Shown here: positions 7,317 through 51,428 of the stretch, in pieces
Numbering within the stretch: the stretch's first letter is position 1
Layout of the letters: every line of letters begins with the position of its first letter
Source: Candidatus Palauibacter soopunensis
GTDB lineage: Bacteria; Gemmatimonadota; Gemmatimonadetes; Palauibacterales; Palauibacteraceae
DNA: 64,000 bases
Reading direction: 5' to 3'
Assembly (NCBI RefSeq): GCF_947581735.1
Contig: NZ_CANPVT010000026.1
Coordinates: 8,841-72,840, forward strand
Notes under the pieces: generated by a model
The model's input: the letters and a program-made list of their open reading frames with translations, nothing else
Databases searched by the model: none
What the model was told of the DNA's origin: nothing
Position numbers and translations under genes: made by a program

Positions 7317-8537
7317 CTAGAACCCGGCCGCCACCTCTCCCAGAGCGGCTACCGCATCGTCGAGTTGCCGGTCGCTGAGATAGGGGGCCGGGCCCAGCCG
7401 CAGCAGGTCGTCGCGGTAGTCCGTCGCCACGCCCCGTGCCGCGAGGGCTTCGTGGAAGTCCCGTGCCCGCGGCGTGCGGAGCGCGAGGAAGCCGCCCACC
7501 GCCTCGGGCGGCGTCTCCCGGTCGCGGTCCAGGAGTTCAGGATCCGCGTCGAGCCCGTCGAACCCGCGCGTGAGACGGTCCATCTGATGCCGGCTCACCG
7601 CGCGCAGAAACTCCGGAGAGAGTCCCCGCTCCCGGAAGAAGTCGAACACTTCGGCGGCACGGTAGTGGCTCGTCGGATCGTATGTGCTGCCCGCGAACCG
7701 TTCCGCTCCCGGCCCGTACCTCACCCGCCCCGCGTCCTCCCCCCCGTGCAGCGTCGAAAACTCCGCGAACCACCCCGTGATGGCGGGGCGCAGCCGGCAG
7801 CCCGGCGGCACCCGCAGGAAGCAGTTCCCCTCGCCGAGCTGGCAGTACTTGTACCCGCCGCCCACCACGAACGCGCCTTCAAGTCCGAGGCTCGAGAGAT
7901 CGAAGGGGATCGCGTTCAGCGCGTGATAGGCGTCCACGAGGAGATGGGCCCCCACCCCTTCGCAGCGTTCCGCCACGCGGTCGAGCCCGCCGACGATGCG
8001 GGCGTCCCGGTAGAGGACGGCGGAGACCAGCACCCCCGCCGTCTCGTCGTCCGTCGCGAGGCCGAGCCGCTCGGACAGTGAGTCGATCGGGTCCACGGGC
8101 ACGCGAACGATGGACAGCCCCTCCTCCTCCAAGCGGTCGAGCTGGCGTCGGATGGAGTGAAACTCCCCGGCGGTCGTGACGAGGCGGGGCCGCGCGCGCA
8201 GGGGCAGGGCGGAGAGCAGGCGGACAACGAGTTCGTGCGTGTTCGAGCCCAGGGCGTAGTCCCCGTCGTCCGGACGTTCCGGGCGGCCGAGAAGTTCGGC
8301 GTACCCGGTGCGTACCCGGTTCCCGCGGGCGAACGCCTCCTCCCACTTCCCGTCCACCAGGCGGGCGGCGTCCTCCCAGGCCCGGAGCTGTCCCGCGAAT
8401 CCGCAGTCGGGCCACGCCTGGTGCGAATGGCCCGTGAGGAGCAGCCGCTCCGAGACCCGGAAGCGGGAGTAGTGTGGAGCGAGCGCGTTCGGCTCCCGGT
8501 ACAGGTCCTCCGGCGCGAAGCTAGTGTGGTGTCGCAT
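7317..8537 (-). CDS. kynU: Kynureninase (PLP-dependent)
   Basis: 406 aa, aminotransferase class V-like with kynureninase-type N-terminus (RFRV...LLTGHSHQAWPD). Lies immediately downstream of a tryptophan 2,3-dioxygenase gene. Confidence 0.8.
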   Translation of the reverse strand: MRHHTSFAPEDLYREPNALAPHYSRFRVSERLLLTGHSHQAWPDCGFAGQLRAWEDAARLVDGKWEEAFARGNRVRTGYAELLGRPERPDDGDYALGSNTHELVVRLLSALPLRARPRLVTTAGEFHSIRRQLDRLEEEGLSIVRVPVDPIDSLSERLGLATDDETAGVLVSAVLYRDARIVGGLDRVAERCEGVGAHLLVDAYHALNAIPFDLSSLGLEGAFVVGGGYKYCQLGEGNCFLRVPPGCRLRPAITGWFAEFSTLHGGEDAGRVRYGPGAERFAGSTYDPTSHYRAAEVFDFFRERGLSPEFLRAVSRHQMDRLTRGFDGLDADPELLDRDRETPPEAVGGFLALRTPRARDFHEALAARGVATDYRDDLLRLGPAPYLSDRQLDDAVAALGEVAAGF

Positions 8538-8546
8538 GAATCCTGG

Positions 8547-9350
8547 TCACAGGTCGGTGCGGATCGCCCACAGGTCGGGAAATACGGGGCGGTTCAGCGA
8601 CTTCCTCAGGTAGGCGGCGCCTCCGGTCTGGCCGGTCCCGGGCCGCGCCCCGATCGTGCGCTCCACCATCTTCACATGCCGGTAGCGCCACTCCTGAAGT
8701 CCCTCGTCGAGGTCCACGAATCGCTCGCACAACTGGACGAGCTGCGGATCCTCCCGGTACAGCCGGATGAGGGCGGCCCGCACGCCCGCGGATGGCTCGG
8801 TCGGCGCCGTGACGTCCCGCTCCAGGTCCTCCGCCGGGATCGCGTACCCGCGCGCGTGGAGAAAGCGAAGGAAGGCCGCCCACAGCGACGGCGCCTCGTA
8901 GCGGGATTCGAGCCGCCGGCGCGCGTCGCTTCCAGCCGGGTATCGGTCGAAGACGTCCCACCGCTTGTGGCCGAGAATGAATTCAAGCTCGCGGAACTGG
9001 TACGATTGCAGGCCGCTCGCCTCCTCCAGCCTCTGCCGGAAGGCGAGGAACTCCAGCGGACGCATCGTCTCGAGGATGTCCAGCTGGGCGACCTGGACCT
9101 TCAGGATCGTGAGGATGCGTTCCATCGTATGGAGGAGCCGCGGCATGTCGTCCGCACCCATCCGGTCGCACGCGAACTCGAGTTCGTGCAGAAGCTGCTT
9201 GAACCACAACTCGTATACCTGGTGGATGATGATGAACAGCATCTCATCGTGCTCGCGGCTCCCGTCCTCGCCCGATTGCTCCACCTGGAGCGACAGCAGC
9301 TCGTCAAGGTGCAGGTACCCCGAATAGGTCAGGTATTTTCCGTGCGCCAT
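8547..9350 (-). CDS. kynA: Tryptophan 2,3-dioxygenase
   Basis: MAHGKYLTYSGYLHLDELLSLQ... and IIIHQVYELWFKQ are the TDO signature region. ATG 9350 is preceded by GGAGGGA. The upstream in-frame ATG 9389 is less likely. Confidence 0.85.
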   Translation of the reverse strand: MAHGKYLTYSGYLHLDELLSLQVEQSGEDGSREHDEMLFIIIHQVYELWFKQLLHELEFACDRMGADDMPRLLHTMERILTILKVQVAQLDILETMRPLEFLAFRQRLEEASGLQSYQFRELEFILGHKRWDVFDRYPAGSDARRRLESRYEAPSLWAAFLRFLHARGYAIPAEDLERDVTAPTEPSAGVRAALIRLYREDPQLVQLCERFVDLDEGLQEWRYRHVKMVERTIGARPGTGQTGGAAYLRKSLNRPVFPDLWAIRTDL

Positions 9351-9402
9351 GAATCTCCCTCCGGCGGCCCGCCCTCGGGCTCGCGTCATCAGGCCCGCAT
9401 CC

Positions 9403-11705
9403 TCAGTACCCCCACTCGAATCTCGGCGTGTAGCCGTCCAGCGACGAATACTGCGGAGGCCAGGGGATCGGCGCCCCCGACGCGTAGGCGGCGTGCCGGG
9501 TCCAGTATGGGTCCCAGAGGTGTGCGCGGGCGAGACAGCAGAGGTCCGCGCGCCCCGCCGCGAGGATCGTGTTCACGTCCATGAACGAGGAGATGTTGCC
9601 CACGGCCATGGTCGCGATCCCCGCCTCGTGCCGGATGCGGTCCGAGAAGGGGGTCTGGTACTGGCGGCCGTAGACGGGCTCCTGCCAGGGGACGGTCTGC
9701 CCCGCCGAGACGTCGATGATGTCCACGCCCGCCTCGTTCAGGCGGTGCGCGACCTCGACGGCTCCGTCCGGCGTCATTCCGCCCTCGGCCCAGTCCACCG
9801 CGGAGATCCGGACGGAGATCGGCTTCTCCGGCGGCCACGCGGATCGCACCGCCGCCAGCACCTCGAGCGGGAAACGCAGCCGGCCGTCCACGTCGCCCCC
9901 GTATTCGTCCTCACGGACGTTGGTGAGAGGAGAGATGAAGCTGGCCAGCAGGTAGCCGTGCGCGAAGTGGATCTCCAGCAGGTCGAACCCGGCTTCCTCC
10001 GACATCTCCGCCGCGCGGCGGAACTCGGCCGTCACCCGATCCATGTCCTGCCGCGTCATTTCGCGCGGAACCGGGCTGTGCTCGAACCAGGGCACGGCGG
10101 AGGCCGCCATGATCGGCCAGCCGCCCTCTTCGAGCGGTTCGTTGTCGCCCTCCCACGACAAATGCGTGGAAGCCTTCCGGCCCGCGTGGCCGAGCTGCAT
10201 CCCGATCGCCGCGTCGGAATGGCGGTGCACGAAGTCGACGATCCGCTTCCAGGCGCCCACATGCGCGGGAGCGTACATCCCTGTGCAGCCCAGCGAGATG
10301 CGGCCCTCCCGGCTCACGTCCGTCATCTCCGACATCACGAGGCCGGCGCCGCCGATCGCGCGGCTGCCGAGGTTCACCAGGTGCCAGTCGTCCGGCGTCC
10401 CGTCCTCCGCCGAGTACTGGCACATGGCCGAGACGACGACCCGGTTCTTCAACTCGAGCTCCCGGAGCCGGAACGGGGCGAGGAGCGGGGGCGGCGCCGG
10501 GCCGCCCCGGATGGTCCCGGGGGGAGGTGCTCCGGCCCCGGCTGCCGCGTCCGCCGCGGCCCGCTCCGCGAACCAGCGGTCGACGCGCGCGGTGAACTCC
10601 GGATCGCGCAGGGCGAGGTTGGAATGGGTGATGCGAAGGCTGCGCGTGATGAGATTGAAGGCGAACTGCACGGGGTCCGTCTCCAGGAAGCGCTCGGTGC
10701 CCTCGAACCATTCGAGGCTCGCCTGGGCCGCCCTCTGCACGCTCTCGACCTCCGGCCTGCGGGCCGTCTCGTAGGCCTCCAGCGCGGGAGCCACCGCGAG
10801 ATCGTGGGCGAGAAGCGACTCGTGAAGCGAGATCGCGTCGATCATCGCAAGCCGGGTGCCCGACCCGATGGAGAAGTGGGCCGAGTGCGCGGCGTCGCCG
10901 ACGAGCACGATGTTGCCGTGGCGCCACGATCGGTTCCGGACGGTCGGGAAGCCCCGCCAGATCGAGCGATTCGCGATAAGTCGATGGGAGCCCAGTTCCT
11001 CGCGGAAGGTGTCCTCGAGGAAGGCGACGGTCTCCTCTTCGGAGGCGGCGTCCATGCCGGCGGCGCGCCACGTCGCCTCGGTCGCCTCGACGATGAAGGT
11101 GGAGACGGCTTCGTCCCCGGCGCCGCCGGGCCTGTACTGATACGCGTGTACCCGCCACAGACCGTGTTCGGTCTCCCGAAAATGGAACGTGAAGGCGGGG
11201 AACGGCTTCGTCGTGCCGAGCCACACGAACCGGTTGGGACGGAGATCGATGCGGGGGCCGAACGCGTCCGCGTATCGGTCCCGCATGCGGCTGTTCACTC
11301 CATCGGCGGCGAGCACGAGATCGGCGTCCGCGTACGCGTCCTCCGACTCGACGTCCACGCCGTACTTCAGATCGACGCCGAGTTCGCGCGCCCGCGACTC
11401 CAGGATCTCGAGGAGCGTGGTGCGCGCGAGGCCGCTGAACCCGTGTCCGGTCGACGTGAGCCGGTGGCCCCGGTAGTGGATGTCGATGTCGTCCCAGTGG
11501 TGGAAGGACCGCGTGATCGCGTCGTAACTCTCGCGGTCGGCGGCGGCCAGTTCCTCCAGCGTGGCGTCGGAGAACACGACGCCGAAGCCGTAGGTGTCGC
11601 CGGGATGGTTGCGCTCGAGGACGACGACGTCGTGCGCCGGGCCCGAGCGCTTCATCAGGATCGCGAAGTACAGGCCGGCCGGCCCGCCTCCGACGCAGAC
11701 GATCC
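9403..11705 (-). CDS. Fused FAD monooxygenase / Old-Yellow-Enzyme reductase: 2-aminobenzoyl-CoA monooxygenase/reductase-like (bifunctional salicylyl-CoA 5-hydroxylase type)
   Basis: N-terminal part has [12 protein letters not shown] (FAD Rossmann) and DG...D / GDAAH motifs of class A flavin monooxygenases. C-terminal part has OYE-like FMN TIM-barrel motifs (HGAHGYLL-like [17 protein letters not shown]). The start is uncertain: the frame is open to 12123 and overlaps the ACAD gene, and there is no ATG or GTG within about 100 nt after the ACAD stop (candidate CTG/ATC near 11700). Confidence 0.75.
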
Positions 11706-12866
11706 TCAGAGGTCGTCCTCGTCGCGCGCGGCGTCGAGCAGATGACGCGCGATGATGAGACGCTGAATCTCCGTTGCGCCCTCGTAGATGCGGAGGGCTC
11801 TCACGGAGCGGTAGAGCCGGTCGACCGGATGGTCCGCCAGCACGCCGCGTCCGCCGAGGATCTGCACGGCGTCGTCCACCACCCCCTGCGCGATTTCGGT
11901 CGCGAAGGACTTTGCCATGGCGGCTTCGAGGTCGGTGCGGTCCGCCCCGCCGTCGCGTTCCCAGGCGGCTCGATACACAAGAAGCCGGGCGGCGGTCAGG
12001 TCGGTGCCCATGCGTCCCACCTTCTCCTGCGTGATCTGGAAGTCGGCGAGCGCCCGTCCGAACTGTCGGCGCGAGAGGGCGTGGTGGAGCGCTTCGTGCA
12101 GCGCGCGCCCCGCCATCCCGCACGCCGCGGCTCCGACGGTGGGGCGCAGGCGGTCGAGCGTCGCGAGCCCGAGCTTGTACCCTTCGCCCTCGGCTCCGAC
12201 GCGGGCCGCGGCCGGCAGCCGACAGTCCTCGAGCGCGATCTCGCCCAGCGGGTGGGGGTCGGCCATCACAAGCGGCCGCACGAAGCGGAACCCCTTCGTG
12301 TCCGCCGGGAGGAGGAAGGCGGAGATCCCCGCCACGCCCTCGCCGGGGTCGGTGACCGCGAACAGGAGATAGAAATCCGCGATCCCGGCGTTCGAGATGA
12401 AGGTCTTCACGCCGTTGAGGATGTAATCGTTCCCGTCACGGACGGCGGCCGTGCGCATGGCGGCGACGTCGGACCCCGCCTCCGGCTCGCTCATCGCGAA
12501 AGCGGCCACGGCTCGCCCCCGGATGGCGCGGTCGAGCCACAGCCGCCGCTGCCGCTCGTCGCCGGCCAGTGCGATCGGGGTCGAGCCCAACGCCTGGAGC
12601 GCGAACATCGCGTCCGCGAGCGGCGAGTAGAAGGCCAGCGTCTCACGGATCACGGAACAAGCCCGGAAGTCCTGTCGGGCGATCGCCTTCAGCCAGCCGC
12701 CACGCCCGAGGGATGCGCAGATCTCCCGTGCATACCGGCGGGCGAGATCATCGTCGTCCCGATGCGCGTGTTCGGCGAACTCGGACGCCGCGTAGCGCTC
12801 GAGGCCCTCCCCGAGTTCGAGGTGCCGCGGTTCGAGAAAGGCGCGGACCGGATGGAGGTCGATCAC
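11706..12866 (-). CDS. Acyl-CoA dehydrogenase
   Basis: 387 aa from GTG 12866, which overlaps the ECH stop (GTGA). ACAD motifs present ([39 protein letters not shown]). The ORF-track start 13385 runs through the ECH gene, so I rejected it. Confidence 0.85.
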
Positions 12867-13663
12867 GAGAATACCGCCGCCCGCTTCTCGACGAAGGCCC
12901 GGAAGCCCTCGCGGAAGTTCGGGTCCTCCATGCAGGCGGCCTGCAGACGGGCCTCCTCGGCGAGCGCGTCGCGTAGCGTCATGTGCGCCTCCCTCTCCAG
13001 CGCGTGCTTGGTGACGGACAGCGCGGAGGATGGTCCCGCCGCCAGCCGCGCCGCCCACTCCGTTCCCGCGGCGAGCGCTTCGCCATCGGGCACGACCCGA
13101 TTGTACAGCCCGAGACGGAGCGCCTCCCGAGCGTCGAGAAAGTCGCCCGTCATCAAAAGCTCCGTCGCCCGCCCGAGACCGATGATTCGCGGCAGGAGCC
13201 AGGCGATGCCCATGTCGGCGCCGGAAAGCCCGACGCGGGTGAACAGGTAGGCGATCTTCGCGGATTCCGCCGCGATCCGCACATCGCACGCGGTTGCGAT
13301 CACGGCCCCGGCTCCCGCCACCGTCCCGTTCAGGGCGCCGACGACGGGTCGGCCGCACTCCCGCATGGCGGCGATCAGGTCGCACGTCATTCGTGTGAAG
13401 TCGAGCAGTTCCGCGGAGTCCATTTCGAGGAGCGGCCCGATGATGTCGCGCACATCTCCGCCCGTGCAGAAGGCGGTGCCGGCCCCCGTGATCACGACCG
13501 CGCGGACCCCCGGTTCCGCGTCGAGTGCGCGGAACGTGTTTCGGAGTTCGTCGTAGACCTCGAAGGTCAGGGCGTTACGCCGTTCGGGGCGGTTCAGCGT
13601 GATCGTCGCCACGGAGGTCGCGGCATCGACATCGTACAGGAATGAAGTCGGGGTCAGAGGCAC
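12863..13663 (-). CDS. Enoyl-CoA hydratase/isomerase (crotonase family)
   Basis: GTG at 13663 (VPLTPTSFLYDVD...) gives 266 aa. Crotonase oxyanion motifs AVVITGAGTAFCTGGD and ALNGTVAGAGA are present. The longer ORF-track start 13741 would overlap the RidA gene. Confidence 0.85.
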   Translation of the reverse strand: MPLTPTSFLYDVDAATSVATITLNRPERRNALTFEVYDELRNTFRALDAEPGVRAVVITGAGTAFCTGGDVRDIIGPLLEMDSAELLDFTRMTCDLIAAMRECGRPVVGALNGTVAGAGAVIATACDVRIAAESAKIAYLFTRVGLSGADMGIAWLLPRIIGLGRATELLMTGDFLDAREALRLGLYNRVVPDGEALAAGTEWAARLAAGPSSALSVTKHALEREAHMTLRDALAEEARLQAACMEDPNFREGFRAFVEKRAAVFS

Positions 13664-13694
13664 GGCGCGCTTCCTTCCGAGGGGTGGTGCGGGG

Positions 13695-14102
13695 TCACGG
13701 CAGGACGGCGGTCGCCTCGATCTCGACCTGCGCGCCGGCATCGACGAGCGCGCTGACCTCGACGAGCGCCATGGCGGGGTAGTGCCGGCCGAGCCGGGCG
13801 CGCCACGTCGCCCCGAGTTCGGAACGCGCGTCGCGGTAGGTGGCGAGATCCGTCACGTAGATGGTCATCCGTCCGATATGCGCAGGCTCTCCGCCCGCCG
13901 CCCGGACGACCGCCAGCACGCGGTCGAGCGCGAGCGCGAACTGCGCGGCGAAGTCCGGCGTCTCAATGCGTCCGCTCGATCCGCTCGCCGTTTGCCCGGC
14001 GACGAACAGCACGCGCCCGCCGGGAGGAGCGAGGAGCCCATGATTCCAGCCCCGCGGCTCGCCCAGCGCGGCCGGATTCAGCACCTCGAACGGGTCGGTC
14101 AC
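13695..14102 (-). CDS. RidA/YjgF-family reactive-intermediate (enamine/imine) deaminase
   Basis: 135 aa. ATG overlaps the SDR stop (ATGA). YjgF-like motifs (RVLFVAGQ..., PARSAVEV-like ALVEV). Confidence 0.75.
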   Translation of the reverse strand: MTDPFEVLNPAALGEPRGWNHGLLAPPGGRVLFVAGQTASGSSGRIETPDFAAQFALALDRVLAVVRAAGGEPAHIGRMTIYVTDLATYRDARSELGATWRARLGRHYPAMALVEVSALVDAGAQVEIEATAVLP

Positions 14103-14881
14103 TGGAGAGCCGACGTGGCGCCGCCGTCCAGCACGACGGTCTGGCCGTTGATGCTCAGCGCTTCGTCTTCACACAGGAACGCGATGGTTGCCGCGACCTC
14201 CCCGGGGGCGATGAGCCTCCGCTGCGGCGTCGTCGCAAGAATCGCGTCGAGCGCGTCCGTCTCTTCCATGTCCGTTCGCTTCACGATGTTCTCGATCGTT
14301 GCATCCGTCATCGGGGTGTCGACGTAGCCGGGACAGACCGCGTTCACCGTGACCCCGGCTCCGGCCACTTCGGCGGCGGCGGAGCGCGTGAGTCCGAGAA
14401 GGGCGTGCTTCGACGCGGCGTAGGCGGCGATGTAGCGTGCTCCGCGCAGCGCGGCGACCGAGGCCACGTTCACGATCCGGCCCCAGCCGCGTTCCATCAT
14501 GCCGGGAAGCACGCCCTGCATCGCGAGCAACGCACCGGTCGCGTTGATGCGCCACAGCCGGTCCCACTCCTCCAGGGCGAGTTTCACGATGGCGGCCGAA
14601 CTGGCCACGCCGGCATTGTTGACGAGGATGTCCACGGCTCCGAGCCGGTTCGCGGCCTCGCGGCACAGGTCCTCCACCTTCGCCGGGTCCGACACGTCGC
14701 ACGTCGCCGCCCACGCCTCGCCGCCACGGTCCCGAAGCTCGGCCGCGACCGCCCCGATCTCCGCCGTGCTCCGCGCCGCGAGGACCAGTCGGACGCCTCG
14801 GTCCGCCAGCGTCCGTGCCGTCGCGGCTCCGATGCCGCGCCCTCCGCCCGTGATGAGAGCGCCACGTCCGGCGAGACTCAT
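14099..14881 (-). CDS. SDR-family oxidoreductase (3-hydroxyacyl-CoA / 3-oxoacyl reductase-like)
   Basis: TGGGRGIGAA Rossmann motif, NNAG, and catalytic YAASK. ATG overlaps the creatininase-family stop (ATGA). Confidence 0.85.
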   Translation of the reverse strand: MSLAGRGALITGGGRGIGAATARTLADRGVRLVLAARSTAEIGAVAAELRDRGGEAWAATCDVSDPAKVEDLCREAANRLGAVDILVNNAGVASSAAIVKLALEEWDRLWRINATGALLAMQGVLPGMMERGWGRIVNVASVAALRGARYIAAYAASKHALLGLTRSAAAEVAGAGVTVNAVCPGYVDTPMTDATIENIVKRTDMEETDALDAILATTPQRRLIAPGEVAATIAFLCEDEALSINGQTVVLDGGATSALQ

Positions 14882-15642
14882 GCTTTCTCCTCCCTCAGGG
14901 CTTCTCCCACCGCTTCCGCGAGGATGTCTCCGAGCGTCTCAATGGTAGCACGTCCCTCTTCCGCCGTCGCCTGCGACGGGTAGCCGAAATAGGCCCGCGT
15001 CCCCCCCGCTTCCGCGAAGTCTCCCAGTCCGGCCCCAATCGCCGCGGAGAGGGAGACGGGATTGTCCTCCAGCTCGCGCATGATCTCCTCCCGCACGCGC
15101 CCGGGGCTGCGGGCGAGGAGGATCGAGCCCTCGTACTGCCCGGCATGACAGGCCCCGCTCCGGAACTCCTTCGTCAGCCGGTTTCCCCACGGCCGGCGCG
15201 TCACATCCGGAAACACGACGCGAATGGCGTCGCCCTCGGCGATCGCCGCGGCGGCGGCCCGGAGCGCCTCGAGGTTGGCGGGGTCGAAGTGCGCGTTCGC
15301 GATCGCCAGGGTGACGATCCCGGCCCGTCGCAGGCTGGCGGCGATGTCGACGAGCAGAGCGGTGAGCGTCGCGGGGCCGATGTCGATCGTGCCGGGAAAC
15401 CTCGCGGCGAACGCGGCGGGCGTGTAGCGGAGGCCGTCGAGGAGCACGATCTGCAGACCGCGAGCCGAGAGTCGTCGCGCGCCGGCTTCCGCCATCGCTT
15501 CGGCGATGGTGACATCGGTGTCGAGAGGCAGGTGGGGGCCGTGCGCTTCGGTGGCTCCCACGGGCAGGATGGCGACCGTCCGATCGGAGTCGAGCGCCCC
15601 GACCTCTTCCCAGGTGAGGTCCGAAAGCCTGTACAGAGTCAT
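14878..15642 (-). CDS. Creatininase-family amidohydrolase
   Basis: ILPVGATEAHGPHLPLDTD is the creatininase/ArfB-family metal-binding signature. 254 aa. First gene of the minus-strand operon. Confidence 0.75.
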   Translation of the reverse strand: MTLYRLSDLTWEEVGALDSDRTVAILPVGATEAHGPHLPLDTDVTIAEAMAEAGARRLSARGLQIVLLDGLRYTPAAFAARFPGTIDIGPATLTALLVDIAASLRRAGIVTLAIANAHFDPANLEALRAAAAAIAEGDAIRVVFPDVTRRPWGNRLTKEFRSGACHAGQYEGSILLARSPGRVREEIMRELEDNPVSLSAAIGAGLGDFAEAGGTRAYFGYPSQATAEEGRATIETLGDILAEAVGEALREEKA

Positions 15643-15772
15643 GGAGTCTCGCTACGCCGTGCCAGAGAGGGGCGCAAGTCCGGGCGGGCCGCGTCGGTTG
15701 TAGACGCGCCGGGCCGCGCATACCACACTAGACCCGAGCCAGACGCCGGACGACCCCCGCCGACGGAGCCCG

Positions 15773-17371
15773 ATGCGAGACCCCGCGCCGCAGCAGATCT
15801 TCGATCCGCCCGAGCGCTTCAACATCGCCGATTACTTCCTGGGCGACCGCATCCGGGAGGGGCGGGGCGGCCGCCGCGCGCTCCTCACCGACGACGGCGA
15901 GACGACCTATGCCGAGGTCGACGCGCTCGCGAACCGCTACGGCCACCTCCTGCGCCGCGCCGGCGTGCGACCGGAGGAGCGGGTCCTCATCGCGCTCCCG
16001 GACGGACCGGACTTCGTCGGCGCGCTCTTCGGCACGCTGCGGATCGGCGCCGTGGGCGTCATGCTGAACCCGTATCTTCGGCGCGACGAGATCTCGTACT
16101 TCTTTCGTTACACGCGCGGCGCCATCCTTCTCGTGGACTCCGGGCGCGCGGACGCCTTCCGCGAAGCCGGGTCCGCGACGGATGACGGAGGGGCGATCCG
16201 CTGGGGCGAAGGGATCTCCGCCCCGCGCGAAACGTTCGTTGTGGACCGGCCGCGGTTCAGGGAGCGTCTGGACGGCCAACCGGCGACGCTGGATCCGTAC
16301 CCCACTCACCGGCACGATCCCGCCCTCTGGCTGTTCAGCGGCGGGACGACCGGTCGCCCGAAAGGCGTCGTGCAGACGCACGCTTCGTTCGCCAACACGA
16401 CGGAGTGCTACGGCAAGCGGATACTGGGTCTGACGGAGGACGACATCACGCTTTCCGTCCCGAAACTGTTCTTCGGCTACGCCACCGGATCCAACCTCTT
16501 CTTCCCCTTCTCGGTCGGGGCGACCGCGGCCCTCTTCCCGGAGCGCTGCAGTCCGGACGTCCTGTTCGGGAAGATCGCGCGATTCCGCCCCACCGTACTC
16601 GTCAACGTGCCCACCATGATCCGGCTCATGGTGGCGCACCCGGACGCGGCCGCGAGCGATCTCTCATGCCTTCGTCTCGCGACCTCGGCGGGCGAGGCGC
16701 TGCCGCCCGAACTTCACCGGCGCTGGCGGGACGCGTGGGGCGTACCGCTCCTGGACGGGCTGGGGACGGCGGAAATGTGGCACATCTTTCTCAGCAACCG
16801 TCCGGACGAGGTGCATCCGGGCACGCTGGGGCGCGCGGTGCCGGGTTTCGAGGTGCGGGTCTGCGACGACGAGGGGCGAGAACTTCCGGACGGCGAAGTG
16901 GGTTGGCTCCGGGTCCGCGGCGGATCGCGGGCGCTGGGGTACTGGCAGCGGGCGCGGGCGACGGCGGAGGCCTTCCGGGGCGAGTGGTACGTGTCGGGCG
17001 ACATGGTCGTCCGCGACGAACGGGGGGTCTTCCGCTACTGCGGGCGCGGCGACGACATGCTCAAGGTGAAGGGAAAGTGGCTGTCGCCCGGCGAGGTGGA
17101 GGACTGCCTGCTGCGGCACGAGGCCGTGGCGGAGGCGGCCGTGGTCGGCGTCCCGACCCCCGAGGGTCTCGTGGAGCCGGTCGCCTGGGTCGTCCCGACG
17201 AAACCGGCCGCCGGAAGAGCCGGCGAGCTTCCACCGGAACTCAGGGAATTCGTCGGTGCGCGGCTGTCCTCGTACAAGACGCCCGCCGCCGTTCACGTAG
17301 TGGCGGATCTGCCCAGGACACACCTCGGAAAGGTCGATCGCGCCGCACTCCGCGATCGATCCCGGAGCTGA
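15773..17371 (+). CDS. Benzoate/anthranilate-CoA ligase family (AMP-forming)
   Basis: AMP-binding motif LFSGGTTGRPKGV, then YGTAE-like GTAEM and the LGKVDR terminal lysine motif. Divergent from the catabolic operon. Confidence 0.85.
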   Translation: MRDPAPQQIFDPPERFNIADYFLGDRIREGRGGRRALLTDDGETTYAEVDALANRYGHLLRRAGVRPEERVLIALPDGPDFVGALFGTLRIGAVGVMLNPYLRRDEISYFFRYTRGAILLVDSGRADAFREAGSATDDGGAIRWGEGISAPRETFVVDRPRFRERLDGQPATLDPYPTHRHDPALWLFSGGTTGRPKGVVQTHASFANTTECYGKRILGLTEDDITLSVPKLFFGYATGSNLFFPFSVGATAALFPERCSPDVLFGKIARFRPTVLVNVPTMIRLMVAHPDAAASDLSCLRLATSAGEALPPELHRRWRDAWGVPLLDGLGTAEMWHIFLSNRPDEVHPGTLGRAVPGFEVRVCDDEGRELPDGEVGWLRVRGGSRALGYWQRARATAEAFRGEWYVSGDMVVRDERGVFRYCGRGDDMLKVKGKWLSPGEVEDCLLRHEAVAEAAVVGVPTPEGLVEPVAWVVPTKPAAGRAGELPPELREFVGARLSSYKTPAAVHVVADLPRTHLGKVDRAALRDRSRS

Positions 17372-27675: not shown

Positions 27676-29799
27676 TCAGCCTCCCCCGTCCGCGCCGCCG
27701 GTGGTCGAGCTCGGCGTCTCGAGGTTGCCGCTGTCGTCCACCGCGCGGCTCAGGATCGAGACCTCGTCTCCGGCAGCGGCGGGGTCGTACTCGTAGCTCC
27801 AGTCCGTCCGGCCGCGGGCCGGGTGCCAGGTCGCTCCCCCGTCGAGCGAGACTTCGACGGCCGCGACAACGCCACCGCCGGTGTCCGACGCCGTCCCGGT
27901 GACGGTCACCATACCGCTCTCCTCGTTTGGCGCCGACGGCGGCCCGAACGAGGATGTGGGTGGCGTGCGATCCGTCGAAGCCGTCGCGGCCACCAGGTCC
28001 GGCTGCATCGTGGCGGGCTGCACGCCCATGTCCGCGAACAGGTTCATCGTCGCCTGCTGCAGGACGAGGTCGGGGCCATGCGGGTCGACGCCCACGCGGG
28101 TGTCGGCGCCGTTCTGACGCTCGGGGGGGACGCCCGTCTCCGTATCGTGGTGCGCGTCGAGCCCCCACGACCACTGCAGCGTCCCGGAGCCGAACACGAG
28201 CGCCCCGCCCTCGTGCCGGTACAGCACCGCGTGATGCGTGGCCGTGCCCGTCTCGCAGCCGCGCCCCGGGTGCACGCAGTAGAGGGTGTTGTCGATCTCC
28301 GTCGCGGCCACCTGGAACAGTCCGGGCGGCCGGAACCCGTTGTCGATGTCCGAGTCCCATTCATGGCCGAGGATTCCCTTGATGGAGACGTACCGCTCAC
28401 CGGGCCGCAGGCGCGCGACCTCCGTATTGCGCCAGAAGCGCAGGTCGGCGAACTCGGCATCGACGATGATGGGGTCGTTCCGCCACGCGTTCACGGTGAA
28501 CAGCGTCCCCGTGAGGGCGTTCTCCGGCCACGGCCCTTCGGCGTTGATCGATCGGTGGTCGCGGAACTCGCCGGTCCATTCGACAGGGTCCAGACGCCGG
28601 TGGTCCTGTGAGTCCTTGTACGTCACGAGTGTCCGGTAGGGCTCACCCGAGCCGTCGATGCTCGCCTCCCAGCGCACCTTCCAGTACACCTCGTTCGAAC
28701 TGAAGAAGGCGAGGTTCAGGCCGGCGGCCCGGGCGGCCTCCACGTTCCGCCGCTGCCGTCCTGTCCAGTACTCATCGTGTCCGACCGAGAGGAAGACCTT
28801 GTGCTCGAGCAGTTCCTCGCCGCGGCGATCCGTGTCGATGCCCGAGAAATAGCTGACATCGTACCCGTTGCGCTCCAGCCAGCGGACCATCGGATACTCG
28901 GAGTTGAAGACCTTGTTCACGGCCCGGTAGTGGCGCGTCTCGAAGGGCCGGTTGTAGCTGACCTTGGGCGCCCGCGGCTCTCCGCCGTGGAGGCGGAGGC
29001 GCTCCGGGTTCAGCCGGCCGTACACGCTGTGCCCGCCGTAGCGGTTGTACGCCTGCCACGTGAGGTCCGACGTCTGGAAGAGCATGTCGGACTCCCCGTC
29101 GTCGTCCCGCACGACGAAGTAGATGTGGCTGGCGCGCGGCTCGCGCAGGCCGTTCCGCATCACGGCCCGGAAGCCGGGCGCCTCCCAAAGCGAGTCCTCA
29201 CCGGTCGGCGGGAGCGGCGTCGCCCGGAACTGGTCGTTCTTCACCCAGCCCTCGATCGGGTCCTCGCGCACGAGCCGTGCGAAGTAGATGCCCGAGGTCG
29301 CATCCTCCGGCGCCTGCCAGGAGGCCGACACCGCCCAGTTGCCGCAGTCGACGAGCGGCGCGGGCCACGTCTCCATCCCGCCGCCCTCGGCCAGCACCGG
29401 GATCGGGCCCCGCAGACATTCGGGCTGGATCTGGGGCAGCGTCGCGGCGGGCTCGAAGGAATCCACCCGGCGCGCGCCCATGCCGCCGTAGTAGCCCATG
29501 CGGTAGATGTCGATCCGGTAGTCGTCCGAGTCCGTGTCGATCTTGAACTCGATCGTCTCGCCCTGGGCGATCGCGATGTCGGTGCCGAAGCCCTGGATGC
29601 TGGGGTCGCCGTAGCTGTTGATGTCCCACTCGGTCGGCGGGTGCCCCTCGAGACAGTTCTCGGCCACGATCTCGTTGGCGGGGTTCGCGCACGGATCCCC
29701 CGCGGACACCTGCAGGCTGCAGCCGGAGCCCGCGGCGACCACAACCAGGAAAAGGGAGGAGGCGGGGAACGGACGGAAGCGCGTTGGGGACGCGATCAT
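27676..29799 (-). CDS. Lipoprotein with N,N-dimethylformamidase-large-subunit-like domain and C-terminal Ig-like domain (paralog A)
   Basis: Signal plus lipobox (LVVVAAGSGCS). Long conserved core (YGGHSVYGRLNPERL...VFLSVGHDEYWT). C-terminal VEVSLDGGATW...SILSRAVDDSGN Ig-like module. The family name is from memory of NCBI naming. Confidence 0.5.
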   Translation of the reverse strand: MIASPTRFRPFPASSLFLVVVAAGSGCSLQVSAGDPCANPANEIVAENCLEGHPPTEWDINSYGDPSIQGFGTDIAIAQGETIEFKIDTDSDDYRIDIYRMGYYGGMGARRVDSFEPAATLPQIQPECLRGPIPVLAEGGGMETWPAPLVDCGNWAVSASWQAPEDATSGIYFARLVREDPIEGWVKNDQFRATPLPPTGEDSLWEAPGFRAVMRNGLREPRASHIYFVVRDDDGESDMLFQTSDLTWQAYNRYGGHSVYGRLNPERLRLHGGEPRAPKVSYNRPFETRHYRAVNKVFNSEYPMVRWLERNGYDVSYFSGIDTDRRGEELLEHKVFLSVGHDEYWTGRQRRNVEAARAAGLNLAFFSSNEVYWKVRWEASIDGSGEPYRTLVTYKDSQDHRRLDPVEWTGEFRDHRSINAEGPWPENALTGTLFTVNAWRNDPIIVDAEFADLRFWRNTEVARLRPGERYVSIKGILGHEWDSDIDNGFRPPGLFQVAATEIDNTLYCVHPGRGCETGTATHHAVLYRHEGGALVFGSGTLQWSWGLDAHHDTETGVPPERQNGADTRVGVDPHGPDLVLQQATMNLFADMGVQPATMQPDLVAATASTDRTPPTSSFGPPSAPNEESGMVTVTGTASDTGGGVVAAVEVSLDGGATWHPARGRTDWSYEYDPAAAGDEVSILSRAVDDSGNLETPSSTTGGADGGG

Positions 29800-29924
29800 G
29801 GCGACATCTCCGAGCCAGAGCAGGGCGTCGGCCGACCCCCGGCCGCCGCGTCTCCGCAACATGCCCCCGCCGTCAGGAGTCTACAACGTCGGCGGGGGCT
29901 CGCGTCGGCTCACATCGGCTCGGC

Positions 29925-32027
29925 TCAGCCGCCCTCGCCCGGAGTCTCCAGGTTGCCGCTGTCGTCCACGGCGCGGCTGAGGATCGAAACCTCGCCGCCC
30001 GACGCATCCGGATCCCACGCGTAGCTCCAGTTCGTGCGGCCACGGGCCGGGCGCCACGTCATCCCGCCGTCCAGCGACACCTCGACGGCAGCGACCACGC
30101 CGCCCCCGGCGTCCGAAGCCGTCCCGCTGACCGTCATCAGGCCGCTCTCCGCATCGGGCCCGGAGGGAGCCTCGAAGGAGGACGTCGGCGGGACGTCATC
30201 CGTCGAAGCCGTGGCCGGCACCAGGTCCGCCTGGATCGTGGCGGGCTGCACGCCCATGTCCGCGAACACGTTGAGCGTCGCCTGCTGCAACACCAGATCC
30301 GGGCCGTTCGGGTCCACTCCGACCCGCGTGTCCATGCCGTTCTGGCGCTCGGGCGGGACGCCGGTCTCGGTGTCGTGGTGGGCGTCGAGGCCCCACGGCC
30401 ACTGCAGCGTCCCCGTGTCGAAGACGAGCGCACCGTTCTCGTGCCGGTACATGACCGCGTTGTGCGTGGCCGACCCCGTCTCGCAGCCCCGGCCCGGGTG
30501 GACGCAGTACTGCAGGTTGTCGATCGTCGTCGCGGAGAGCCGGAACAGCCCCGGCGGGCGGAAGCCGTTGTCGATGTCCGAGTCCCACTCGTGGCCGAGG
30601 ATTCCCTTGATCGACACGTAGCGCTCACCGGGCTGGAGCCGTGCGACCTCCGTATTGCGCCAGAACCTGAGGCCGGCGAATTCGGCGTCCACCATGAGCG
30701 GGTCGTTCCGCCACGCGTTCACCGTGAACAGCGTCCCGGTGAGGGCGTTCGCCGGCCACGGGCCCTCCGGGTTGATCGAACGGTGATCGCGGAATAGACC
30801 CGTCCACTCGACCGGATCGAGCTTCCGGTGGTCCTGCGATTCCTTGTAGGTCACGAACGTGCGGTACGGCTGCTCCGATCCGTCGATGCTCGGCTCCCAG
30901 CGCACCTTCCAGAAGATGTCGTTCGAACCGAAGAAGCCGAGGTGAACGCCGGCCGCGAGCGCGGCCTCCACGTTGCGCCGCTGCTGGCCCGTCCAGTACT
31001 CGTCGTGTCCGACGGAGAGGAAGACCTTGTGCTCGAGCAGTTCCTCGCCCCTGCGATCCGTATCGACGCCGGACGTGTAACTCACGTCGTAGCCGTTGCG
31101 CTCGAGCCAGCGGACCATCGGGTACTCGGAGTTGAACACCATGTTCACGGCCCGGTAGTGCCGGTTCTCGAAGGGCCGGTTGTAGCTCACTTTCGGCGCG
31201 CGCGGGGGTCCGCCGTGGAGCCGGAGGCGCTCGGGATTCAGGCGCCCGTACACGCTGTGGCCGCCGTAGCGGTTGTACGCCTGCCAGTTGAGATCCGAGG
31301 TCTGGAAGAGCAGGTCGGATTCGCCGTCGTCATCACGGACGACGAAGTAGATGTGGCTGGCGCGCGCCTCGCGCAGCGGGTTCCGCATCACGGCGTGGAA
31401 GCCGGGAGCTTCCCAAAGCGAGTCCTCGCCCGTCGGCGGGAGCGGCGTCGGTTCGAACGCATCGTTCTTCACCCAGCCCTCGATCGGGTCCTCGCGTACG
31501 AGCCGGGCGAAGTAGATGCCCGAAGTCGCGTCGTCCGGCGCCTGCCATGAGGCCGACACCGCCCAGTTGCCGCAGTCCACGAGCGGCGCGGGCCACGTCT
31601 CGAGGCCGCCCCCCTCGGCGAGCACCGGGATCGGAGCGCGCAGGCACTCGGGCTGGATCTGGGGCAGCGTCGCGGCGGGATCGAAGGAATCCACCCGGCG
31701 CGCCCCCATGCCGCCGTAGTAGCCCATGCGGTAGATGTCGATCCGGTAGTCGTCGGAGTCGGTGTCGACCTTGAACTGGATCGTCTCGCCCCGGTTGACC
31801 GCGATGTCGGTCCCGAACCCCTGGATGCTGGGATCGCCGTAGCCGTTGATGTCCCACTCCGTGGGCGGGTGCCCCTCGAGACAGTTTTCCGCCACGATCT
31901 CGTTGGCGGGATCGGCGCACGCCTCCTCCATGGTCATTTGGGGCGGCGCGCAGGCGCCCGCGAGGAGCAGCGTCGAGGCGGGGAGGAAGAAGGAAGACGG
32001 ACGGAAGCGCGGGCGTGGCTGGGTCAT
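29925..32027 (-). CDS. Paralog B of the dimethylformamidase-like lipoprotein (about 90% aa identity to paralog A)
   Basis: MTQPRPRFRPSSFFLPASTLLLAGAC lipoprotein signal. Collinear with paralog A along the full length. Confidence 0.5.
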   Translation of the reverse strand: MTQPRPRFRPSSFFLPASTLLLAGACAPPQMTMEEACADPANEIVAENCLEGHPPTEWDINGYGDPSIQGFGTDIAVNRGETIQFKVDTDSDDYRIDIYRMGYYGGMGARRVDSFDPAATLPQIQPECLRAPIPVLAEGGGLETWPAPLVDCGNWAVSASWQAPDDATSGIYFARLVREDPIEGWVKNDAFEPTPLPPTGEDSLWEAPGFHAVMRNPLREARASHIYFVVRDDDGESDLLFQTSDLNWQAYNRYGGHSVYGRLNPERLRLHGGPPRAPKVSYNRPFENRHYRAVNMVFNSEYPMVRWLERNGYDVSYTSGVDTDRRGEELLEHKVFLSVGHDEYWTGQQRRNVEAALAAGVHLGFFGSNDIFWKVRWEPSIDGSEQPYRTFVTYKESQDHRKLDPVEWTGLFRDHRSINPEGPWPANALTGTLFTVNAWRNDPLMVDAEFAGLRFWRNTEVARLQPGERYVSIKGILGHEWDSDIDNGFRPPGLFRLSATTIDNLQYCVHPGRGCETGSATHNAVMYRHENGALVFDTGTLQWPWGLDAHHDTETGVPPERQNGMDTRVGVDPNGPDLVLQQATLNVFADMGVQPATIQADLVPATASTDDVPPTSSFEAPSGPDAESGLMTVSGTASDAGGGVVAAVEVSLDGGMTWRPARGRTNWSYAWDPDASGGEVSILSRAVDDSGNLETPGEGG

Positions 32028-35265: not shown

Positions 35266-36651
35266 TCAGCTGAAGTCGCGGCCCAGGATGACGGAGACGA
35301 TGATCGCCCCCACCGCCAGCGGCGCCACCCAGCGGATGAAGAAGCGCCACGCCCCGTAGTGGAACCACCGCGGCTCCGTGCCGTCCACGAGTTCGCGTTC
35401 CGTCGCGTTCCGCGTCATGAACCAGCCCGCCGCGAGCGTGATGGCGAATCCGCCGGTGGGCAGCATCCAGTTGGAGACGAAGTGGTCGACGGTGGAGAAC
35501 CAGCCCACCTTCTCCGCGAAGATCTCCAGCGTGGAGAGGAACGGCGTGCCCGTGAACGAGAGCGCCGCGAAGATCGTGAACACGAAGATAGCCGCGCCGC
35601 AGAGGACCGTCGCCTTGTGTCGAGGGATCCGGTGCTCATCGATCACGTAGCTCGACACGACCTCGAGGAGGGAGATCGTCGAGGTCAGCGCCGCGAGCGC
35701 CACGAGCACGTAGAAGAGCGGCCCCAGCACGACGCCGAACGGTACCGCGGTGTAGAACAGTTCCGGCAGCGAGATGAAGAGCATCCCCACCGGCGAACCG
35801 CTCACCTGGTCGCTCATCCCCGCCACCGAGAAGATGACCGAGAACATGATGATCGTCGCCACGAGCGCGATCAGCGTGTCGAGCGCCACGATCGCCCCGG
35901 ACGCCTTCACGATCGAATGCTTGCGCGAGATGTAGGAACCGTAGGTGATCATCGCCCCCATCCCGAGGGAGAGCGTGAAGAAGGAGTGACCCAGCGCCTC
36001 GAGGACGCCGCTCATCTCCAGCTCCCCGAAGTTGGCGCGGAAGATGAAGCGCATCGCCTCCCCGGACCCGCTCATCCCCAGCGCGCTCACGAGGAGGAGG
36101 AGGAGGATCCCGAACAGGATGGGGAGGAAGATGCGGGCGATCCGCTCGATCCCCTTGCTCACGCCGAAGTAGACGACCGCGATCGTCGCGATGCTGAAGC
36201 TGAGGGAGAGCGCGAGCTGGAGGCCCGCGTTCCCCACCTGCTCGTTGAACAGGTCGCCCGCCGCCATCCCCGCGGGATAGCCGCCGAACGTCCAGCCGAT
36301 GGACTGGGCGAAGTAGTACAGGGACCAGCCCGCGATGACCGTGTAGTAGCTGAGGAGGATGAAGCCGGCGAGCACGCCCCACCCGCCGACGATGCCCCAC
36401 CACGGCCCGGCCGCCTCCTTGAGCGCCCCGACCGCGCTCTTCTGGCTCCTGCGCCCGATGAGCAGTTCCGCCATCATGATCGGCAGGCCCACGGCGACGA
36501 TGCAGACCAGGTAGACGAGGACGAAGGCGCCCCCCTCGTTCTCCCAGGTGATGAACGGGAACTTCCACAGGTTGCCGAGGCCGATCGCGCTGCCGGTCGC
36601 GGCCAGCACGAGACCGACGTTCGAACTCCAGTTATCGCGGGGTTGGCTCAT
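35266..36651 (-). CDS. Sodium-dependent transporter, SNF (neurotransmitter:sodium symporter) family
   Basis: N-terminal NWSSNVGLVLAATGSAIGLGNLWKFPF signature and 11-12 predicted TM segments. Start at MSQPRDNW; the upstream 54-aa extension lacks TM character. Confidence 0.8.
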   Translation of the reverse strand: MSQPRDNWSSNVGLVLAATGSAIGLGNLWKFPFITWENEGGAFVLVYLVCIVAVGLPIMMAELLIGRRSQKSAVGALKEAAGPWWGIVGGWGVLAGFILLSYYTVIAGWSLYYFAQSIGWTFGGYPAGMAAGDLFNEQVGNAGLQLALSLSFSIATIAVVYFGVSKGIERIARIFLPILFGILLLLLVSALGMSGSGEAMRFIFRANFGELEMSGVLEALGHSFFTLSLGMGAMITYGSYISRKHSIVKASGAIVALDTLIALVATIIMFSVIFSVAGMSDQVSGSPVGMLFISLPELFYTAVPFGVVLGPLFYVLVALAALTSTISLLEVVSSYVIDEHRIPRHKATVLCGAAIFVFTIFAALSFTGTPFLSTLEIFAEKVGWFSTVDHFVSNWMLPTGGFAITLAAGWFMTRNATERELVDGTEPRWFHYGAWRFFIRWVAPLAVGAIIVSVILGRDFS

Positions 36652-36756
36652 GGGACATGTCCAGTCGGGCGTTATCCGGGCAGGGCGTCGCCGCCCCTGC
36701 ATGAGTTCGACGAACCAACCTACCCCGTCGTCACGAGAGGCCACCAGACGCGCGCC

Positions 36757-50997: not shown

Positions 50998-51428
50998 GCC
51001 GCAGCTCCTTCTGGAAGTTGCACAAGTCCCTAACGAGAAAGCGTAGGTGTCGGTTCTCCGTTGTCGCAACTCCCCCACAAGCCGTATTGGCGCGACCCCC
51101 TAGTCCCACGAGCCCTTCTCTCTTCCTCTGATGGTTCCGTCGCTGTGATGAACGCCGTCGGCGGCGTGTTCCGATGACGTCGTTGGGGTCGTGCGGGCTT
51201 GCGCTCCTTGGCTCACTCGAACGTTCCGGCGGTTGCGGAAGAACCGTATCCGACGCCGTCACGATACCGTTGAGGCTACAGGACCACATGACCCCTGCTG
51301 TCTCGACCCGTGCCACCCTTGTCGAGTGCCGACACGCTCCAGCACGTTGGCGCACCTGTTGCGTGGAGGAAGGCGCTTCGCCCATCATTCCCGCCCGCAA
51401 AACCACCGCCCGCAGGGAGAAGGGTTCA

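Follow-up and report, generated by a model that had tools for sequence, protein, structure and literature searches.

Candidatus Palauibacter soopunensis represents an uncultured marine lineage of the phylum Gemmatimonadota. Here, we describe a cluster of nine genes in a 64,000-nucleotide stretch of its genome (contig NZ_CANPVT010000026.1; hereafter the window, with a G+C content of ~69%), which probably encodes a catabolic supra-operon for the breakdown of L-tryptophan via anthraniloyl-CoA. Eight co-directional genes occupy the minus strand at 7317-15642 and are transcribed in the order creatininase-family amidase, short-chain dehydrogenase/reductase (SDR), Rid-family protein, crotonase-fold protein, acyl-CoA dehydrogenase (ACAD), fused flavin adenine dinucleotide (FAD)-dependent monooxygenase/old yellow enzyme (OYE) reductase, tryptophan 2,3-dioxygenase (TDO) and kynureninase-like protein, and an aryl-CoA ligase gene is transcribed divergently from them (Table 1). 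An earlier reading of the DNA letters without database searches (the sequence-only reading) had assigned these families, strands and gene order, and matches to NCBIfam, Pfam and Protein Data Bank (PDB) entries place each of the nine products in the family it had named.

The same reading counted four overlapping or abutting gene junctions and three short gaps, as is indeed found. Four junctions are 4-nt overlaps (three clean ATGA or GTGA overlaps and one CTGA): amidase/SDR, SDR/Rid, crotonase/ACAD (GTGA) and ACAD/fused enzyme (CTGA if the latter gene starts at CTG; with an ATC start there is a 2-nt gap). The gaps measure 31 nt between the Rid and crotonase-fold genes, with GGAAGGA preceding a GTG start, 13 nt between the fused enzyme and TDO genes, and 9 nt between the TDO and kynureninase-like genes. 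The operon is tight, with translational coupling between genes, and a terminator scan gave no terminator-like site on the minus strand within it. The intergenic region between the divergent amidase and ligase genes has a mean identity of 86% among three Palauibacter relatives; a consensus scan of this region gave no sigma-70-like promoter, and no regulator gene lies close by.

Table 1. Genes and intergenic region of the cluster, with positions in the 64-kb window
Feature	Position	Strand	Matches
Kynureninase-like protein (divergent), 406 aa, last gene of the operon	7317-8537	-	PDB and profile matches, KYNU_C
Tryptophan 2,3-dioxygenase (TDO), 280 aa	8547-9389	-	PF03301
Fused FAD monooxygenase/OYE reductase (ACMR family), 768 aa, non-canonical start	9403-11709	-	NF006101
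Acyl-CoA dehydrogenase (ACAD), 386 aa, GTG start	11706-12866	-	PF00441, PF02770, PF08028
Crotonase-fold protein, 266 aa	12863-13663	-	NF006107 (PRK08258), PF00378
Rid (YjgF/RidA)-family protein, 135 aa	13695-14102	-	PF01042
SDR, 260 aa, 3-hydroxybutyrate-dehydrogenase-like	14099-14881	-	PF00106, PF13561
Creatininase-family metallo-amidohydrolase, 254 aa, first gene of the operon	14878-15642	-	PF02633
Divergent intergenic region, 130 nt, amidase start to ligase start	15643-15772		
Aryl-CoA ligase, 532 aa, benzoate-CoA ligase family	15773-17371	+	TIGR02262

The fused flavoenzyme scores 1108.4 bits against NF006101 (PRK08255), above the curated equivalog cut-off of 1078, and consists of a PF01494 domain (residues 4-326) followed by a PF00724 domain (residues 409-741). 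These two halves match VioD and OYE structures, respectively, and the PDB search gave no full-length structure. The enzyme is 95% identical to Palauibacter database entries, and JGI names the same proteins anthraniloyl-CoA monooxygenase. No ATG, GTG or TTG codon lies 5' of the GxGxxG motif (GGGPAG) in this gene. Among the best 120 homologues, all from Gemmatimonadota, the N-terminal consensus opens with M followed by K or R, and the window codon at that position is a CTG (11709-11707) overlapping the TGA stop of the ACAD gene; in a sister species (locus L001 of the survey described below), the start annotated by PGAP is an ATC two codons downstream of the CTG position. The start codon must be either this CTG or the ATC. 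Other gene callers select an internal Met start, giving 750-aa products without the FAD-binding Rossmann loop, and it is because of this start-codon problem that many Palauibacter database entries are truncated; many are 750 aa long, start with MKRSGP or MKRSDP and lack the GxGxxG loop.

To place the fused enzyme, 112 enzymes were compared in a neighbour-joining tree, in which Azoarcus AbmA and Streptomyces SdgC were represented by context-labelled proxies (the Ralstonia cluster and the pAL1/Tsukamurella/Streptantibioticus clade, respectively). The window enzyme belongs to a clade of Gemmatimonadota proteins that branches among the enzymes from ACAD/crotonase/SDR/Rid-type clusters, including the Ralstonia cluster, and the actinobacterial thioesterase/cupin/FAH type, as in Arthrobacter pAL1, forms a separate clade of its own. 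This placement, in a distance tree with proxy references, and the lack of homologues of the pAL1 thioesterase, cupin or FAH hydrolase in the 64-kb window run counter to a grouping of the enzyme with salicylyl-CoA or other aryl-CoA hydroxylases of different substrate; a gentisate-type route was rejected for the window on the lack of the same three proteins. Were 5-hydroxylation of the aryl-CoA its sole activity, as in the type known from Streptomyces sdg or Arthrobacter pAL1, the fused enzyme would produce 5-hydroxyanthraniloyl-CoA or gentisyl-CoA, whose ring a dioxygenase would cleave later. This would suit the NCBIfam family name, salicylyl-CoA 5-hydroxylase, and the resemblance of the window enzyme to that of pAL1 (52%) equals its resemblance to the proteobacterial enzymes, but we consider such a role improbable, as neither a thioesterase, a cupin dioxygenase nor an FAH hydrolase is encoded in the window, the pAL1-type enzymes branch separately, and ACAD, crotonase and SDR genes, a set characteristic of ring-reducing clusters, are part of the window cluster. 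Use of anthraniloyl-CoA, with reduction of the ring at the expense of two NADH, is predicted from context: kynA/kynU would act earlier in the pathway and the beta-oxidation-like set later, and the tree groups the enzyme with that type of cluster. The NF006101 score, the tree and the conservation of the cluster lend comparative support to the tie to the aerobic CoA-thioester route of anthranilate degradation that had been proposed from the sequence. In the actinobacterial loci L082 (pAL1), L083 and L170, thioesterase, cupin and Rid genes accompany that of the fused enzyme, joined by an FAH hydrolase gene in L082 and L170; Tsukamurella has the full pAL1-type set and Streptantibioticus the same set, with no FAH hydrolase detected. 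These clusters look like a gentisate-style ring cleavage of 5-hydroxyanthranilate.

Aerobic 2-aminobenzoate metabolism via 2-aminobenzoyl-CoA was reportedly assigned to the abm clusters of Azoarcus (now Aromatoleum) evansii by Schuehle et al. in 2001; these clusters are said to encode an aryl-CoA ligase, a fused monooxygenase/reductase (2-aminobenzoyl-CoA monooxygenase/reductase, ACMR), three beta-oxidation-like enzymes and a YjgF/Rid-like protein, with CoA thioesters as intermediates throughout. Measured against this gene content, all six components (ligase, fused enzyme, ACAD, crotonase-fold protein, dehydrogenase and Rid-like protein) are present at 9403-17371, whereas the window cluster, from another phylum, has a ligase of another lineage, lacks the MarR regulator and the ABC binding protein, and adds TDO, kynureninase and amidase genes. 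On the Ralstonia solanacearum megaplasmid (L169), the order is fused enzyme-SDR-MarR-crotonase-ACAD-'2-aminobenzoate-CoA ligase'-thioesterase-RidA, a layout that we take to correspond to the published Azoarcus layout; the name of the ligase is that given by NCBI. Its proteins are 52% (fused enzyme), 47% (SDR), 50% (crotonase), 52% (ACAD) and 44% (Rid) identical to those of the window, but the ligase is just 34% identical, MarR and thioesterase genes are present (the MarR protein has no homologue in the 64-kb window), and there are neither kynurenine genes nor an amidase. In Arthrobacter sp. Rue61a, anthranilate-CoA ligase activity has been demonstrated for pAL1 (PMC3534580). There, the ligase gene adjoins one for a fused enzyme that shares 52% identity with that of the window, and the Rid protein also has a Met at the position of Arg105 (see below); in contrast to the window, thioesterase, cupin and FAH hydrolase genes follow instead of ACAD, crotonase and SDR genes, the fused enzyme belongs to a separate clade and the regulators are of PaaX type. 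The published account of pAL1 nevertheless assumes an Azoarcus-type product (PMC3534580).

A divergent CoA ligase of benzoate/anthranilate type had been proposed for the window, and the comparisons agree: the ligase scores 462 bits against TIGR02262 (cut-off 375) and matches benzoate-CoA ligase 2v7b (6.5e-116) and the myxobacterial anthranilate-CoA ligase 4wv3 (3e-105). It is 33-35% identical to the anthranilate-CoA ligases of pAL1 and Ralstonia (53% identity between these two), and on this identity comparison is not an abmG-type 2-aminobenzoate-CoA ligase. Given the low identity, the Gemmatimonadota clusters have taken up another ligase lineage.

TDO scores 209 bits against PF03301 and 271 bits against TIGR03036, the latter under the equivalog cut-off of 390, and aligns end to end with Cupriavidus TDO (2nox, E 4e-57). 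It retains the proximal-His (haem-ligand) motif WRyRH and the distal HQ, with a Phe at the position of Xanthomonas Tyr113; the TDO of the sister species begins at a second ATG, equivalent to 9350. The kynureninase-like protein has no NCBIfam match and reaches only 32 bits against Pfam KYNU_C, and is hence a divergent, remote member of its family. As a single sequence, it matches Pseudomonas fluorescens kynureninase (1qz9) over almost its full length with an E-value of 5.5e-10, and a profile built from 12 orthologues retrieves 1qz9 at 2.8e-21 and then three human kynureninase entries, ahead of any other pyridoxal phosphate (PLP)-dependent enzyme. Residues D202 (the Asp that binds the pyridine), Y229-K230-Y231 (the PLP-lysine motif) and R380 (the substrate Arg) are invariant in the orthologues. 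The gene of the divergent kynureninase always follows the TDO gene in these clusters; in one further locus, L087, a canonical kynureninase takes its place.

Conservation of the cluster was followed in two scans. The first used a profile of the fused enzyme on one genome per species and yielded 80 loci (52-72% identity), in which the nine window proteins were then sought by tblastn; the second was seeded with the amidase and covered metagenomes. The full nine-gene arrangement is present in nine Gemmatimonadota loci, including that of the sister species (L001-L005, L009, L011, L012 and L017), and three further Gemmatimonadota loci are interrupted by contig ends. The order, with the ligase divergent from amidase-SDR-Rid-crotonase-ACAD-fused enzyme-TDO-kynureninase, also recurs in about two dozen metagenome contigs from soil or marine samples. 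A synteny survey, which the sequence-only reading had suggested, thus finds the same order in Gemmatimonadota genomes and metagenome contigs alike, and since it is shared by the sister species, eight further loci of the phylum and these contigs, it is not a product of chance: the nine genes stay together phylum-wide in Gemmatimonadota. Among the amidase-seeded metagenome loci long enough to judge, the fused enzyme gene accompanies the amidase gene in 29/35 and the TDO gene in 24/31, and the amidase adjoins the ligase in 57/62 and the SDR in 60/71. In other phyla, about 40 loci contain a core of fused enzyme, ACAD, crotonase, SDR, Rid and ligase genes without amidase, TDO or kynureninase; they belong to Alpha-, Beta- and Gammaproteobacteria, Chloroflexota, Eremiobacterota, Rokubacteria and Dormibacterota, and the same core is found on a haloarchaeal plasmid. 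Kynurenine genes have joined ACMR-type clusters independently in L081, L052, L028, L041, L043 and L051. In the alphaproteobacterial L081 (14984-17263, a Kiloniellaceae metagenome-assembled genome), the fused enzyme, ACAD, a ligase of the same type, Rid and crotonase are joined with a long TDO and a kynureninase, and three further products of this cluster are an alpha/beta hydrolase resembling kynurenine formamidase, a TrpB-like PLP enzyme and a luciferase-like monooxygenase.

Two of the enzymes expected to act after the fused flavoenzyme deviate from their canonical relatives; the reference sequences of Escherichia coli RidA and human ECHS1 used for the residue alignments were entered by hand. 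In RidA, Arg105 binds the alpha-carboxylate of the substrate. The window protein had been called RidA, and membership of the Rid family holds (PF01042, 64 bits), but the score is under the TIGR00004 cut-off and the position of Arg105 is occupied by Met, with Met or Thr in 17/17 cluster-linked homologues from seven phyla. The absence of this Arg would fit a CoA-bound enamine or imine substrate rather than an imino acid, with Rid-family 2-aminomuconate deaminases as a precedent. Similarly, the protein described as an enoyl-CoA hydratase does have the crotonase fold, within an uncharacterised subfamily (NF006107, 357 bits, cut-off 330; PF00378, 185 bits; best PDB match the uncharacterised 3g64), but V and F replace the two catalytic glutamates in a BLASTP alignment with ECHS1. 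With both glutamates replaced, an isomerase or a ring-opening hydrolase, activities found in other members of the crotonase superfamily, is likelier than simple hydration, and the protein is probably not a simple hydratase. The SDR scores 245 bits against TIGR01963, under its cut-off, and the best NCBIfam matches of the ACAD are short-chain and alicyclic acyl-CoA dehydrogenases, all likewise under cut-off; ACAD orthologues with 44-53% identity are found in the ACMR clusters of other phyla.

In the pathway that we propose from these sequences, TDO would open the indole ring of L-tryptophan to give N-formylkynurenine, from which the creatininase-fold metallo-amidase may remove the formyl group, the least certain step. 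The divergent kynureninase would then release alanine and anthranilate, and the divergently transcribed benzoate-type ligase would form anthraniloyl-CoA. Like the Azoarcus enzyme, the fused flavoenzyme is predicted to hydroxylate and reduce the ring, producing 2-amino-5-oxocyclohex-1-ene-1-carbonyl-CoA. Next, the Rid protein lacking Arg105 would free the enamine nitrogen as ammonia, the crotonase-fold enzyme lacking both glutamates would isomerise or hydrolytically open the beta-keto ring, and SDR and ACAD would carry out the remaining beta-oxidation-like redox steps on the ring-opened keto-dicarboxyl-CoA. While gene families, order and conservation are observed, we infer all substrates and the order of the Rid, crotonase and SDR-ACAD steps. 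The product of the Azoarcus fused-enzyme reaction is quoted in a study of Arthrobacter, in which anthranilate-grown cells contained anthraniloyl-CoA and a C7H8O4-CoA interpreted as cyclohexanedione-carboxyl-CoA (PMC3534580), the mass of the latter being that expected after deamination.

A supply of anthraniloyl-CoA could also serve a secondary metabolite instead of degradation, as the kynurenine pathway and PqsA do for the Pseudomonas quinolones. Palauibacter has been noted for polyketide production (cf. the species name polyketidifaciens), and the loci L085-L088 combine ligase, amidase, TDO and kynureninase genes without the lower pathway. However, no polyketide synthase, nonribosomal peptide synthetase or PqsD-like condensing enzyme adjoins the window cluster, in which the ring-reducing enzyme and the beta-oxidation-like genes share the operon with the kynurenine genes, and such a use is very improbable here. 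Degradation remains the reading that we favour.

The conversion of tryptophan into anthranilate requires a formamidase, and the creatininase-family protein is the sole hydrolase without an assigned role. No PF04199 (cyclase-fold KynB) is among the Pfam matches reported for the 64-kb window, tblastn with KynB-like and kynurenine formamidase (KFase)-like queries gave no match in it, and in the Gemmatimonadota clusters, where the creatininase gene is present, KynB and KFase genes are lacking. The amidase, 100% identical to a protein that NCBI assigns to Candidatus Palauibacter soopunensis, scores 178 bits against PF02633, and its residues E32, H34, D43, H118, D120, H166 and E171, which correspond to the metal ligands and catalytic His of creatininase, do not vary among 12 orthologues. 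Roles in the degradation of creatinine or the maturation of mycofactocin were rejected, as the scores are under the family cut-offs (creatininase TIGR04448, 81 vs 235 bits; MftE TIGR03964, 110 vs 172 bits) and no partner genes lie nearby; a plasmid search with the amidase returned only a distant MftE match.

Three sets of loci point to a role in deformylation. First, L085 and L086 contain modules of a ligase gene divergent from amidase-TDO-kynureninase, without the lower pathway. Second, the amidase and ligase of L087 and L088 are the same as in the window (62% and 58% identity, respectively), while their TDO is 40% identical and their kynureninase, a canonical one, 29%; with TDO and kynureninase so different, the association with the amidase is an independent one. 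Third, a known type of formamidase is present, and the creatininase gene absent, in L081, in which the alpha/beta hydrolase has 2pbl and Drosophila kynurenine formamidase 4e11 (5.7e-13) as PDB relatives, and in L028 and L052, in which KynB-like cyclases lie beside canonical kynureninases. The modules of L087 (10001-13080) and L088 (2846-5925) are followed by genes for an inositol-monophosphatase-like protein, a 4HBT thioesterase and a Rieske oxygenase, with no ring-reducing pathway, which suggests another fate for anthraniloyl-CoA in these genomes. The creatininase-annotated BrbF of Sinorhizobium meliloti (SMc02977) is a proven aryl-formamide hydrolase of riboflavin synthesis (PMC9478397); it shares the fold family with the window amidase and hydrolyses a formyl group from an aromatic amine, although substrate and pathway are different. 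From this sequence-based comparison, the chances that the creatininase-family amidase, a candidate, is the N-formylkynurenine formamidase seem to us about even, and we are equally divided on whether it stands for a third class of N-formylkynurenine (aryl) formamidase, not orthologous to the cyclase-fold KynB and the alpha/beta-hydrolase KFase, which it would replace in Gemmatimonadota. The pathway had been called complete: families for all the steps named are present, but a known formamidase is not, and it would be complete only if the amidase, or an enzyme encoded elsewhere, performs the deformylation.

Alternatively, the pathway could be the same with the amidase acting in its lower part, where its substrate might be either the ring-reduced product, hydrolysed at its vinylogous amide (enamine), or a lactam derived from an amino-keto intermediate, which it would open; deformylation would then be left to an enzyme encoded elsewhere or to a non-enzymatic reaction. 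The amidase gene heads the SDR-Rid-crotonase-ACAD-fused enzyme block, and its closest partner in the metagenome loci is the ligase rather than TDO. Moreover, it is retained with the ligase and the lower pathway without TDO or kynureninase nearby in L016, L023, L027, L133, L139 and L141, a finding that favours this alternative and is at the same time the first of several that weigh against the route as we have drawn it. Downstream of the clusters without TDO and kynureninase, anthranilate-forming genes were sought and only unrelated ones were seen (G6PD, HAMP/PAS sensors, BBE oxidase). The amidase gene stands alone on a few contigs (L084, L111, L127 and L131), a cyclase-family gene lies 9.5 kb from the L085 module, and the co-occurrence counts of the amidase are not independent, as most of its loci come from one phylum. 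KFase-like alpha/beta hydrolases are encoded in or beside proteobacterial ACMR clusters with no TDO or kynureninase within 10 kb (L046, L069, L071, L073 and L080), in L069 and L073 immediately upstream of the ligase; these hydrolases parallel the amidase, which would mean either functional equivalence or a shared, unrecognised role. In addition, the cluster has no thiolase, regulator or transporter gene, and NCBI applies the name salicylyl-CoA 5-hydroxylase/oxidoreductase to NF006101 family-wide, and the sequence by itself does not settle the substrate of the fused enzyme. A lower-pathway role of the amidase is nonetheless doubtful in our view, since about 40 clusters of other phyla have the same lower pathway without the amidase, L085-L088 keep it with ligase, TDO and kynureninase without the lower pathway, and L081, L028 and L052 have known formamidase types in its slot.

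The genes flanking the cluster in the window and in the sister species encode DUF1015 and DUF6065 proteins on the ligase side, and a MobA-like nucleoside triphosphate transferase, a low-molecular-weight phosphatase and a DUF5916 protein on the kynureninase side. No regulator or binding protein is among them in either genome. A sodium:neurotransmitter symporter family (SNF) transporter, a family of which certain members import tryptophan, is encoded 18 kb away (35266-36813, minus strand). Tandem minus-strand genes at 27676-29862 and 29925-32027 encode proteins of 728 and 700 aa with a domain like the beta-subunit of N,N-dimethylformamidase (PF20254, E 1e-98 and 8e-95). An McrB-like AAA protein and McrC are encoded at 51174-55279 (plus strand), where the local G+C content is 57-60% vs ~69% and third-position G+C ~0.62; this patch is probably a restriction island gained horizontally.

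The kyn and abm genes of Cupriavidus are reportedly at separate loci, and both Cupriavidus and Pseudomonas use a KynB formamidase of the cyclase type. In genome reconstructions of Cupriavidus, anthranilate formed through the kyn genes enters the abm route via 2-aminobenzoyl-CoA (PMC8879955), the same chemistry from tryptophan through anthranilate to 2-aminobenzoyl-CoA as proposed here; the window differs from this kynA-kynB-kynU/abm system in its single operon, in the absence of KynB from the 64 kb and in its highly divergent kynureninase. The pathway concept is therefore already published, and what is new is the physical coupling of its two halves. In the literature, we found no description of kynurenine and anthraniloyl-CoA halves in one operon, conserved in Gemmatimonadota and arising independently elsewhere, nor of a replacement ligase, a divergent kynureninase or a creatininase-fold formamidase candidate in such a cluster, and no paper that ties creatininase-family proteins to kynurenine formamidase. 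Neither tryptophan nor kynurenine nor anthranilate comes up in the paper that described Palauibacterales, and in a full-text literature search the key intermediate appeared in one open paper only, from 2012.

How aerobic anthranilate degradation proceeds beyond the ring-reducing flavoenzyme has not been resolved since the studies on Azoarcus, and for these steps clusters of the type described here provide a compact, widely conserved set of genes. Three enzyme hypotheses emerge: a formamidase of creatininase fold, a Rid enamine deaminase without Arg105 and a crotonase-fold enzyme without both glutamates. Because the organism is uncultured, growth and transcriptomic experiments are not directly feasible, and heterologous expression is the practical route to these enzymes. 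If the amidase is indeed a formamidase of a third class, the operon would be a self-contained route from tryptophan to central metabolism via a CoA pathway that removes the aromaticity of the ring; two later enzymes of this pathway, the Rid protein without its Arg and the crotonase without its Glu residues, have never been characterised. A phylum widespread in soil and sea, the Gemmatimonadota, probably consumes tryptophan by this route.

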